From Yersinia enterocolitica subsp. enterocolitica (lineage in GTDB: Bacteria > Pseudomonadota > Gammaproteobacteria > Enterobacterales > Enterobacteriaceae): a DNA stretch of 32,000 nt. Under the pieces are notes generated by a model, which ran no database searches, was not told the origin of the DNA, and saw only the letters and a list, made by a program, of their open reading frames with translations. The translations under genes were made by a program, and so were the position numbers. The stretch is taken from contig NZ_LR590469.1 in NCBI RefSeq assembly GCF_901472495.1, positions 3,372,993 through 3,404,992 on the forward strand, given 5' to 3'. Positions within the stretch are counted from its first letter, which is position 1. Each line of letters starts with the position of its first letter. Below are positions 26,538 through 29,300 of this stretch, piece by piece.

Positions 26538-26711
26538 TCAAGCTAGTTGCTGCTTCACACTTTTAGCAGCCTTATGCTCATGTACTGGGGGAGATGTGAC
26601 AGCTTGCCCAGTAGTGGTATCACTTAACCCAGATTTTTTCCAAGTTGGCCATGTATTGACCTGTTCGCTTGCCTCTTTGAGGTAAGCAAGAAATTCTTCT
26701 TTATTGGTCAT
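26538..26711 (-). CDS. Small hypothetical protein (57 aa), third gene of the cassette, below the ORF-track size cutoff
   Basis: Manual translation gives MTNKEEFLAYLKEASEQVNTWPTWKKSGLSDTTTGQAVTSPPVHEHKAAKSVKQQLA*. Its ATG (26711-26709) lies inside the last codons of the deaminase gene (AATGACCAATAA), in a coupling-type overlap. It ends just before the terminator. Confidence 0.35.
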   Translation of the reverse strand: MTNKEEFLAYLKEASEQVNTWPTWKKSGLSDTTTGQAVTSPPVHEHKAAKSVKQQLA

Positions 26712-28203
26712 TTTGTAATTTCTCCGCCAGTTTAGCTACGATGTCTGCCGACACGGACTCTCGCTCAATATAAGATGATGGTAGCATTTGCATTCTAAGT
26801 TTGCCAGATCTCCTATCCCATTCTACGACTTTTCCATCATTATCTTTTCTTTTAATTTTATAACCAATTCCTAAACTTATTGAGAATAAATTGAAGAAAC
26901 AGCGCGGGCCTACACCAACAAATGGCTCAAAAATCACACGTTCACTAATATGATTTTTATCTGGTGTTGATATTGAGTCTGGATGGAAATCAAAAGCTTT
27001 ACTTTTAGGGTAAGGTTCGATATAGACTACTCTTTTTATACCACTTGCTACGATATGTTTGGCACAGTTATGACATGGGAATGTAGTGCAATATAAAATA
27101 CCATCATATGTACTTATATTACTTCGCGCACATGCGAGAATTGCTTCCATTTCAGCATGTACTACTCTACCATATTCCGTAATATATTTTATTTTACTTT
27201 CAGATAAGTGTTTTTTTAATTCATCCCTGTATTCAGATTCGACATTTTTTAAAATATCTTCTATTATAATGTTTTTTTCTTTTACATTTGAATCAACTCC
27301 GACTTTATAATCTCTACCATCTTCACTATCTGTTATTTCACCATCTATATATTCTGGCCAGTATAGTCCTCCCCCAAATTTTGGGACGTCATTAGCACCC
27401 GTAGAAATAATATTTTTATCTTTAGTTAATACTGCCCCAACTTGTCTTGATAAGTCTCCTGATCTTAATGATGCTGAAAATGCCATAAACATAGAATATT
27501 CGTCGAAAGTTGGGGTAACGTATGGATTACCAAATATTAGATCAAGAATCCTCCATAAGTCATTGTTAATTCTATCTATGCTTCCAGTATGATTTATAAA
27601 AAAATCCGATAACTCATATGTATCTCTAGTATGTTGTCCCCAAGGATCTTCTTCTTCTGAGTCTCGTTCAATTAGAGTTTTTGCATTTTCTTCATTGATA
27701 AATTTATTTTTTTGTAAAAAGTCTAAACGTCTCTTTTCATCTGCGTAAACACCGATGAGATAAAAGCCATTAGTGTAAATTCTCCGTAATGTATTGACTT
27801 CATCTGGGTGTTTTAATGAGTTAATTATATATGCTTTTTTCGGTGATGGAATTGGACTACCATCTGCTTTTTCTCGCTTTTGATTTATTCTTGCAGCAGC
27901 AGCAAGAGATAAAATTGAATTGTCCTCACTAATTCTTCTTAAATTATTTCCTTCTGTCATGAACTTACTTATTTTTTCATAGTTATCCTGAATAGCAGGA
28001 ATATCTCTAAACATAGAAATTATATCTGTAGATATTCTTATTTCTTCTGTTTTATAACCAAATGCGGTTAATCTTTCCTTAATGGAATTTTTAATTATTT
28101 CTAAATCAGTCCCAACTGCTCCAACTAATCCAATAACTAATTCCGAATCTGAATCACTAGGATGTTCATTGTTTTTTATTTTTGTTAATGTATTTATTTT
28201 CAT
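26701..28203 (-). CDS. Kinase-like N-terminal domain fused to a dCMP/dCTP (cytidine) deaminase domain; AvcD / anti-phage dCTP deaminase family
   Basis: 500 aa. The C-terminal deaminase signature is ...QVGAVLTKDKNIISTGANDVP...HAEMEAI...CTTFPCHNCAKHIVASGIKRVVYIEPYP (HAE plus PCxxC zinc site). The N-terminal ~200 aa are P-loop-kinase-like with a degenerate Walker A (GLVGAVGTD). This domain order matches published defensive dCTP deaminases. Confidence 0.8.
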   Translation of the reverse strand: MKINTLTKIKNNEHPSDSDSELVIGLVGAVGTDLEIIKNSIKERLTAFGYKTEEIRISTDIISMFRDIPAIQDNYEKISKFMTEGNNLRRISEDNSILSLAAAARINQKREKADGSPIPSPKKAYIINSLKHPDEVNTLRRIYTNGFYLIGVYADEKRRLDFLQKNKFINEENAKTLIERDSEEEDPWGQHTRDTYELSDFFINHTGSIDRINNDLWRILDLIFGNPYVTPTFDEYSMFMAFSASLRSGDLSRQVGAVLTKDKNIISTGANDVPKFGGGLYWPEYIDGEITDSEDGRDYKVGVDSNVKEKNIIIEDILKNVESEYRDELKKHLSESKIKYITEYGRVVHAEMEAILACARSNISTYDGILYCTTFPCHNCAKHIVASGIKRVVYIEPYPKSKAFDFHPDSISTPDKNHISERVIFEPFVGVGPRCFFNLFSISLGIGYKIKRKDNDGKVVEWDRRSGKLRMQMLPSSYIERESVSADIVAKLAEKLQNDQ

Positions 28204-28236
28204 GCTGATAATTCCCGCCAGAATAAAAATTGAATT

Positions 28237-29109
28237 TTAATTGTTATTGATAACCTGATTTAATTTCTTATAAAGCTCACCGCTTAAATCTTTAAATCCT
28301 TGATCGTTAGCTAAATATACTAATGCTCGATGATGACCAAGATCTGATGGTATGTCACTTATTGACTGAGTGATGGGAACAACAATTTTACCCAAAGTAT
28401 GAGCAATACCAGTTTCATACATTACGTTTGGATTTCTACCTGTGTAATCTACAATGATTACCTTTGAACAATATATTAAGTCAAATATATCTTGTATGAA
28501 TGTTGAGTTATCCCATATGTCATCTGCACGATAACACTCTATTTTCATATAGTCTGTTACTTTTTTTATCGCGGCATAAGTACCCGAGAACGATGAATTA
28601 AATGGCATCATCACGGACACTAATCGTGGATTTAACAGTTTGTTAGGAATTTTAAAAACAGAGGGCTTAAATGTAACTAATCTTTCAGTAGGAATTTCCT
28701 GATGATCAGTAGAAATAAACTCGCCATGTATTTGACATACACGTACTAAACCAGTAGGTAATTCAGCTATAGATAACCCATAACTATTTAAACATTTCTT
28801 TACTGATTCAACAGCTTGAGGTTTATCAATATTACCATTAGACAAAAAATGATCTGGATGGAGTAAATACTCTATTACTTTTATAATCTCTTTCGAGGGT
28901 AGTCCGTCAGAAATTGGTTTTTTCTGATTTAACTCTTTAAGAACATCATTTACCCAATGTCTACGAGTGGAGCCATTATGAACATATTCTAAGTCAATAT
29001 CGATAAAGAATTTTGTTAAGTATGAGGAGCTACGATATGGGAAAAAAGAAAAAGGATCATCACCACAAATCATTTCTGATAGCTTAGTTAATCCTGCTGT
29101 ACCAATCAT
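28237..29109 (-). CDS. Two-domain protein: unknown N-terminal domain (~160 aa) plus a nucleoside 2-deoxyribosyltransferase-like (NDT/TIR-like Rossmannoid) C-terminal domain
   Basis: The C-terminus VSVMMPF...ADDIW...CSKVIIVDYTGRNPNVMYETGIAHTLGKIVVPI fits the NDT-like pattern (beta1 ending in PF, an acidic residue, then NPNV-YE-G-A---GK--V-I). The start is set at MIGTAG (ATG at 29109), preceded by AGGAG at 5 nt. The ORF-track Met at 29124 has no SD. Confidence 0.6.
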   Translation of the reverse strand: MIGTAGLTKLSEMICGDDPFSFFPYRSSSYLTKFFIDIDLEYVHNGSTRRHWVNDVLKELNQKKPISDGLPSKEIIKVIEYLLHPDHFLSNGNIDKPQAVESVKKCLNSYGLSIAELPTGLVRVCQIHGEFISTDHQEIPTERLVTFKPSVFKIPNKLLNPRLVSVMMPFNSSFSGTYAAIKKVTDYMKIECYRADDIWDNSTFIQDIFDLIYCSKVIIVDYTGRNPNVMYETGIAHTLGKIVVPITQSISDIPSDLGHHRALVYLANDQGFKDLSGELYKKLNQVINNN

Positions 29110-29300
29110 GACGACTCCTAACATTAATAAAGAGTAACATTTTGCAATTCATCCTAACGATTCCTGCGGTGTTCCTGCAAGTACTGTATAGATTAATGAT
29201 AGTTTTTGTGATTAAACGTACTCAATTATTATCTAATGCTTCTCCACCCTCTGCGCGCAATGCTATCCCCGCCACGCCTGCGCGCTTTACAGGTCGCTTT

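Follow-up and report, generated by a model that had tools for sequence, protein, structure and literature searches.

Kinase-deaminase fusions of the deoxycytidine triphosphate (dCTP) deaminase family have been catalogued so far, as anti-phage defence, either as one gene by itself or paired with a small RNA (sRNA) on the 5′ side. In the AvcID system that RNA, AvcI, is encoded immediately 5′ of avcD, within a 504-nt intergenic region, and the logic is that of a labile partner that restrains the deaminase and disappears once host transcription is shut off by phage (Hsueh et al., 2022, 2023). Two further described architectures bear on the locus reported here. The list of proteins in which an AbiJ-NTD1 domain is fused to another domain includes a flavodoxin-fold nucleoside deoxyribosyltransferase (NDT), predicted to act as an abortive infection (Abi)-like sensor-toxin (Anantharaman et al., 2013, PMC3710099); and Swarozyc, an abortive-infection NADase, consists of a DUF4062 TIR-like NADase and an auxiliary domain (bioRxiv 10.64898/2026.05.01.722283). 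We analysed a stretch of 32,000 nucleotides from Yersinia enterocolitica subsp. enterocolitica (contig NZ_LR590469.1, positions 3,372,993 to 3,404,992; hereafter the window), in which three adjacent minus-strand genes, A, B and C, form a compact cassette (Table 1). B encodes a dCTP deaminase, C a small protein on its 3′ side, and A a two-domain protein with a predicted NDT-like C-terminus.

We suggest that the cassette probably consists of two autonomous anti-phage modules, B with C and A by itself, which share, head-to-tail, the cargo slot of a P4-like satellite and are read as one operon; in vivo the two would act independently of each other. Two stacked modules are the simplest account because B and C occur without A, A occurs without B and C, the three are joined in one lineage, and the equivalent slot in E. 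coli holds B and C alone. A first-pass annotation of this DNA had instead read the three genes as one composite nucleotide-targeting system.

Separate distributions of gene A and of genes B and C

B had been recognized from its sequence as an AvcD/Tal-type kinase-deaminase with a zinc site, and profile searches agree. The protein scored 485.6 bits on the NCBIfam equivalog NF041025, “anti-phage dCTP deaminase” (cutoff 400), over residues 21–442 and model positions 1–432 of 437; it matched the PADLOC dCTPase model PDLC02373 at 8.2e-179 and Pfam dCMP_cyt_deam_1 at 4.6e-18; and its HAE (residues 349–351) and PCHNC (376–380) motifs were invariant in a six-sequence alignment. Within the Yersiniaceae clade its ratio of nonsynonymous to synonymous substitution rates (dN/dS) was 0.05–0.12. 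Judged by sequence, B is a typical anti-phage dCTP deaminase of the known family, with nothing unusual about it. The AW1.7 enzyme of that family, studied experimentally by Tal et al. (2022), has a canonical P-loop at its start and belongs to a different subclade from B; AW1.7, U09 and H10407 were looked for among the complete E. coli genomes with a deaminase of either type and were not found there.

We gathered 98 deaminase loci from metagenomes, viral contigs, plasmids, phage records and E. coli genomes. The locus sets comprise the best 80 of 240 matches to A and the best 80 of 501 matches to B, and as top-scoring subsets they yield frequencies that hold for nearer relatives only. A hidden Markov model (HMM) of the C family matched once each in 68 of the 98 deaminase loci, always abutting the 3′ end of the deaminase and nowhere else; five of the 30 loci without a match are truncated or too short downstream to judge. 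About 64 loci have B and C without A, and among the 98 no A-like gene accompanied a deaminase outside the Yersiniaceae lineage. Seen from the side of A, a deaminase or C stood beside it at one of 80 A-family loci, a Rahnella relative of the cassette. Neither a deaminase (within 8 kb) nor a C-like open reading frame (ORF) accompanied A at 51 of 52 full-length loci, and no gene recurred beside it at more than three of the 52; its neighbours were restriction-modification (R-M) subunits, TIR and SIR2 proteins, helicases, integrases, transposases and housekeeping genes. Only Yersinia-like, Rahnella and Serratia satellites showed the A-B-C arrangement, and in E. coli satellites the slot right after the same cos-like segment holds B and C alone. 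The test of neighbour conservation that the first-pass annotation had proposed divides its composite cassette: the deaminase has a conserved neighbour in C but not in A, and on the latter point the claim that all three genes make up one system is not supported.

A composite system, in which for example the N-glycosidase of A would act on deaminase products, or one of the two enzymes would sense or regulate the other, is in our view unlikely. Two observations do weigh in its favour and against separate modules: the gap between A and B is kept at 23–33 nt across a synonymous divergence (dS) of ~1 in three genera, which could reflect selection for co-expression, and the deaminase adjoins a TIR/NDT-superfamily gene at two further loci that are independent of this one, L160/L162 and L145. 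The cassette is, moreover, a single apparent operon with one terminator, and its gene order is what the Yersinia-like, Rahnella and Serratia satellites have retained over that divergence. Against this stand the A loci without a deaminase and the B and C loci without A; in addition, every residue that is invariant in their families is retained by A and B of this clade, with no domain change peculiar to it, and three adjacency events in ~90 loci are within reach of defence-island clustering. We consider it quite unlikely, too, that the operon fusion is functional in the Yersiniaceae lineage, with A and a C-controlled deaminase jointly attacking the pyrimidine/NAD pool as a three-component system. 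Close packing of genes into an operon, where it occurs in a satellite hotspot, is not in itself proof of a single system. The combination had also been put forward as undescribed; this apparently holds for C, whereas B belongs to a known family and the architecture of A is catalogued in PMC3710099.

The two other loci can be described briefly. At L160 (3150–7439; L162 is the same) the deaminase has 599 aa and no C; a TIR_2 protein begins 2 nt beyond it, and a radical-SAM gene comes next. At L145 (5571–6383) an ORF ~630 nt 3′ of the deaminase has an RNPNV.YE motif as in A, and its NDT-like N-terminal domain is 32% identical to A residues 191–263.

Genes A and C

That A ends in an NDT-like domain was borne out at the level of the fold. 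The AlphaFold model of A (predicted local distance difference test score 77.8) has a helical N-domain to residue ~135, with helices at 9–113 followed by a hairpin, and an alpha/beta C-domain at ~160–293. Foldseek comparison of this C-domain with the PDB returned the NDT 8qc0 at 1.7e-4, 2a0k and DNPH1, and then STING-TIR and SPARTA TIR; against BFVD it returned a CMP/hmCMP hydrolase at 1.7e-6, a Cap12/Pycsar TIR second, and also NDTs. At the sequence level A scored 14.6 bits (E 0.037) on Pfam NDT (PF05014), below the gathering threshold of 28.8; 13 of 20 A-family members matched the same model sub-threshold (best E = 0.012). The PADLOC TIR effector model matched residues 202–270 at 2.4e-5, and, this weak TIR match aside, A matches no PADLOC system model. 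Pfam TIR and TIR_2 gave no match to A, and a profile of A searched against PDB sequences gave nothing meaningful. E237 is invariant within NVMYETGIAHTLGK in the A-family alignment, and NPNVMYETGIAHTLGK fits the E-x-G-x-A-x-x-x-G-K nucleophile motif of NDT, DNPH1 and some TIR domains; by this motif comparison E237 would be equivalent to the NDT nucleophile. The modelled C-domain can be placed firmly in the NDT/DNPH1/TIR fold superfamily, but not firmly on the NDT-like or the TIR-like side of it.

The N-domain links A to a wider set of proteins. A word-indexed protein database search with it yielded nothing beyond fragments of the family of A, and an exhaustive search with its profile returned 482 representative proteins. 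Among the 41 long hits, all at E ≤1e-15, are proteins with Abi_C, DUF4145, Mrr_cat, PDDEXK_3, PLDc_2, NDT (five) and TIR_2 (seven), and SEFIR and ThsB_TIR are other domains found on the long proteins. Because this repertoire equals the published list of AbiJ-NTD1 fusions, which names AbiJ-HEPN, DUF4145, REase, HKD/PLD and NDT domains, we assign A to the AbiJ-NTD1 + NDT architecture. Homologues of A are labelled “AbiJ N-terminal domain-containing” in one source; in Pfam, which holds no NTD1 model, A matched none of AbiJ_NTD3/4/5.

More than 2500 homologues of ~290 aa make up the A family, with 63–73% identity among Gammaproteobacteria, Chlorobi, Firmicutes and Cyanobacteria and 45–50% identity to archaea (Methanoperedens, Methanosarcinaceae, Methanoregula); dN/dS in the Yersiniaceae clade was 0.06–0.17. 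Such conservation across phyla gives a hint of a conserved ligand and not of a fast-evolving phage protein. The motifs MICGD, FPYRSSS.LT.FF and GSTRR.WV are invariant in the N-domain (loci L003–L060).

So high a degree of conservation is unusual for a defence protein, and A could be an enzyme of nucleotide salvage or modification, or else a factor that serves the satellite or counter-defence, carried by chance beside the deaminase. The housekeeping genes that make up many of its neighbours, and the lack of a fitting PADLOC system model, would agree with such a role. We nonetheless regard it as distinctly unlikely: the N-domain shuffles onto Abi_C, DUF4145, TIR, SEFIR, Mrr and PLD domains; the distribution of A is patchy and suggestive of horizontal gene transfer, with variable genomic context and low G+C; and A lies in a satellite defence hotspot and belongs to a family with R-M, TIR, SIR2 and integrase genes among its neighbours. 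As far as sequence comparison indicates, A represents a large stand-alone family with an architecture catalogued in silico, and is a candidate for single-gene defence.

The pattern of conservation in C indicates a genuine conserved small protein, apparently undescribed. Members of the family are 45–77 aa long, with a core of F..HL..a...V..WPxWK and low-complexity tails rich in S/T/P/G/K. Their starts lie −40 to +11 nt from the deaminase stop, with ATGA-type overlaps typical of translational coupling. C is present with almost every deaminase at least 52% identical to B, and is absent from a subclade at ~49–51% identity and from clades at ~33–41%. In 61 distinct DNA variants the W, P and W of the core are invariant and the K is kept in 60, and the codons at conserved residues vary: all four for proline (20/17/16/8), four for valine and both for lysine. 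Since synonymous codons turn over at invariant residues, we conclude that C is constrained at the protein and not the RNA level. In the Yersiniaceae clade dN/dS was 0.18–0.44, and an indel there preserves the reading frame; a homologue 98% identical to C occurs in Yersinia enterocolitica. The order psu, deaminase, 57-aa hypothetical protein and integrase, with no A, is found in P4-like satellites of 12 of 5426 E. coli genomes. Loci of the C type usually retain their own 5′ region of ~360 nt.

C has no match in Pfam or NCBIfam; together with its E. coli counterpart it weakly matches a 55-aa PHROG family of unknown function. The literature searched describes a 5′ sRNA or small ORF (AvcI/DifV) and contained no description of a 3′ deaminase partner. 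A search for Rosetta-stone fusions of C to B found none. For a docking region on B, 59 deaminases with C were compared with 20 without it, and no region-level difference appeared, only scattered clade-specific substitutions. It is possible, if not quite probable, that C is an essential protein regulator, and that B and C represent an unrecognised two-gene form of dCTP-deaminase defence. That C is instead a chance ORF, or that its region acts as an AvcI-like RNA, is highly improbable: AvcI does contain an ORF without which it still functions, the C-terminal half of C is poorly conserved and its dN/dS exceeds that of A and B, but the ORF is kept in 68 loci with indels in frame, the WPxWK residues are constrained while their synonymous codons turn over, the overlap with the deaminase fits translational coupling, and the PHROG match, though weak, extends to the E. 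coli counterpart.

Small ORFs also accompany more distant deaminases. Those of the ~40%-identity clade were considered as relatives of C and rejected as unrelated by HMM. In that clade, ORFs of ~60 aa lie 12–34 nt 5′ of deaminases ~40% identical to B (L226, 2222–2404; L227, 2188–2373), in the position of AvcI, on Klebsiella 4.6-kb ColE1-type plasmids and E. coli IncI plasmids; both end in ...K(S/K)(L/I)(K/T)W, and the deaminases there are without C. The temperate P2-like Burkholderia phage phiE094 (L228, 2366–4319) carries a 570-aa deaminase homologue of 33% identity, with an unrelated 73-aa ORF on its 3′ side; on its 5′ side are two genes for AAA ATPases, which adjoin the integrase.

Cassette layout and satellite setting

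A check of the ORFs in the window found A, B and C on the minus strand at the coordinates first assigned to them. An AGGAG ribosome-binding site precedes the ATG of A at 29109 and homologues all begin at the same ATG, so the 290-aa form is the likely product. The ATG of C overlaps the final codons of B by 11 nt, with GGAG upstream, and C is apparently made by translational coupling to B. Given the short A-B gap without a terminator, this overlap and the single closing terminator, the three genes are probably co-transcribed, as had been supposed. The strong terminator reported 3′ of the cassette is confirmed by its folding energy (Table 1); a simple pattern scan did not pick up the hairpin, which emerged on folding against shuffled sequences. 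In a promoter scan of the region, promoter-like sites were no commoner than in shuffled sequence. Measured in 500-nt windows, G+C is 29–39% in the cassette, 44–60% on the satellite side and ~45–53% in chromosomal genes; the sharp drop in G+C noted earlier is real, but the 22–23% quoted for it describes single lines of sequence and not the cassette average.

The identification of the cassette as defence cargo of a P4-like satellite was also upheld. Directly upstream are a Psu-like gene (phrog_6165, 1e-77), an Ogr/Delta gene (Ogr_Delta, 2.5e-20), the cos-like segment and an alpha-primase; here the ORF at 31161–31982 aligns with a Serratia 893-aa Toprim/DUF927 primase gene. From these neighbours we place the cassette as cargo at the end of the satellite. 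The defence hotspot of P4-like satellites was reportedly defined by Rousset and colleagues in 2022; in the window the cargo is bounded on one side by the late-gene/cos region and on the other by the end of a satellite with Psu, Delta and alpha primase. In E. coli the cos-like segment sits between psu and the deaminase (L089, 5370–5462), and these ~100 nt were the sole match of the cassette DNA to complete E. coli genomes. Relatives in Rahnella (87% identity for A) and Serratia (81%), and one relative at 97%, share a block that extends from the cos-like segment and breaks off sharply at 26371–26373.

Table 1. Positions of the cassette genes, their domains and the flanking features in the window
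Feature	Position	Strand	Description
Gene A	28237–29109	-	290 aa; alternative upstream ATG at 29124 (28237–29124, 295 aa)
A N-terminal domain	28705–29109	-	~135 aa, mostly helical; shuffling “AbiJ-NTD1-like” module
A C-terminal domain	28237–28677	-	predicted NDT/DNPH1/TIR fold; invariant motif NPNVMYETGIAHTLGK; E237 (295-aa numbering)
A-B junction	28204–28236	-	33 nt, no terminator; no room for a 5′ AvcI-type sRNA
Gene B	26701–28203	-	500 aa, anti-phage dCTP deaminase; HAE at 27151–27159, PCHNC at 27064–27078
Gene C	26538–26711	-	57 aa; conserved F..YL..A...V..WPxWK core; WPTWK at 26637–26651
Intrinsic terminator of cassette	~26485–26518	-	hairpin of -16.1 kcal/mol, z = -5.4; 0/200 shuffles equally stable
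Candidate sigma-70 promoter for the A-B-C operon	29196–29225	-	TTGAGT-18-TATCAT, 9/12 matches; weak evidence
Probable cos-like segment	29244–29349		start of cargo slot; 83–90% identity to unannotated DNA in 66 E. coli chromosomes
Intrinsic terminator	29479–29497	-	GC-rich hairpin and T-run; closes the Psu-like/Ogr-Delta operon just upstream of the cargo
Common end of shared block	26371–26373		all four blastn comparisons (Rahnella, Serratia, 97%-identical relatives) stop here

An MBL-fold gene at 25139–25969 was considered as a fourth component and rejected, as it lies outside the shared block and L084, the 97%-identical relative, lacks it. The 276-aa hydrolase, encoded on the minus strand, matches anti-Pycsar Apyc1, a DRT-associated MBL and Avs1a weakly, at scores below threshold; the ~1.3-kb segment that holds it (25080–26370, 38–41% G+C) may be a separate small insertion. 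Elsewhere in the window, at 2515–6063 on the plus strand, five tandem 228-aa paralogues, 67–69% identical and separated by 28–30-nt spacers, are each a PAS_4 + GerE/LuxR “solo” regulator; this array lies in a stretch of 32–36% G+C with flanks of ~46–47%.

Proposed mechanism and comparison with described systems

Depletion of dCTP and deoxycytidine monophosphate is established for the family to which B belongs. On infection B would turn deoxycytidine into deoxyuridine nucleotides, starving phage DNA synthesis; C would bind B through its helix-WPxWK core, as a labile inhibitor or a regulatory subunit, and may be the protein counterpart of the 5′ AvcI RNA antitoxin of other deaminase clades. The second module would be a single-protein sensor-effector of the Abi type: the AbiJ-NTD1-like N-domain of A would sense an infection cue and then release an NDT/TIR-fold N-glycosidase with its invariant Glu, which, by analogy with Swarozyc and with TIR/NDT effectors, may hydrolyse NAD+ or (deoxy)nucleotides.

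Most nearer relatives have the conserved 3′ protein, which suggests that a toxic deaminase can be silenced in a second way, by a protein; if tools and cloning studies omitted C, some results on activity or toxicity may need re-examination. The family of A, large and strikingly conserved, is a candidate new single-gene defence of the NDT/TIR type.

The NDT-like effector of retron-Eco1 and the TIR effectors of Thoeris, CBASS and SPARTA have the catalytic fold predicted for A, but need separate sensor or signal genes (reverse transcriptase and noncoding RNA, ThsB, CD-NTase and Ago); none of these was found in or beside the cassette, and the A family has no recurrent neighbour. Swarozyc, like A, is a single protein that combines a TIR/NDT-superfamily domain and its Glu with a sensor domain, but it has the reverse domain order and belongs to a different family (bioRxiv 10.64898/2026.05.01.722283); DUF4062 gave no match at E up to 1 in A or in 19 homologues. 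By this analogy Swarozyc is a plausible model for how A acts. The AbiJ-NTD1 proteins share with A a helical N-domain of ~140 aa, the same fusion repertoire and an NDT-like domain, a likeness drawn from the fusion list; their combination with NDT is an in silico prediction of an Abi-like toxin (PMC3710099).

For B, the dCTP deaminase of Tal et al. (2022) offers a full-length match, with the same kinase-like N-domain and HAE/PCxxC site, and the family likewise occurs in P4-like satellite hotspots of E. coli. It is described and modelled as a single gene, whereas here, and in about two-thirds of nearer relatives, a 45–77-aa protein is encoded on the 3′ side. The enzyme of AvcID is of the same family as B. 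With a gap of only 33 nt there is no room for an AvcI-type RNA between A and B, and no such 5′ region is present there, although an RNA inside the coding sequence of A is possible. Deaminases of ~40% identity on Klebsiella and E. coli plasmids have a small ORF in the 5′ position of AvcI and no C. The partner in AvcID is thus a 5′ sRNA, whereas the conserved partner of B is a protein on its 3′ side.

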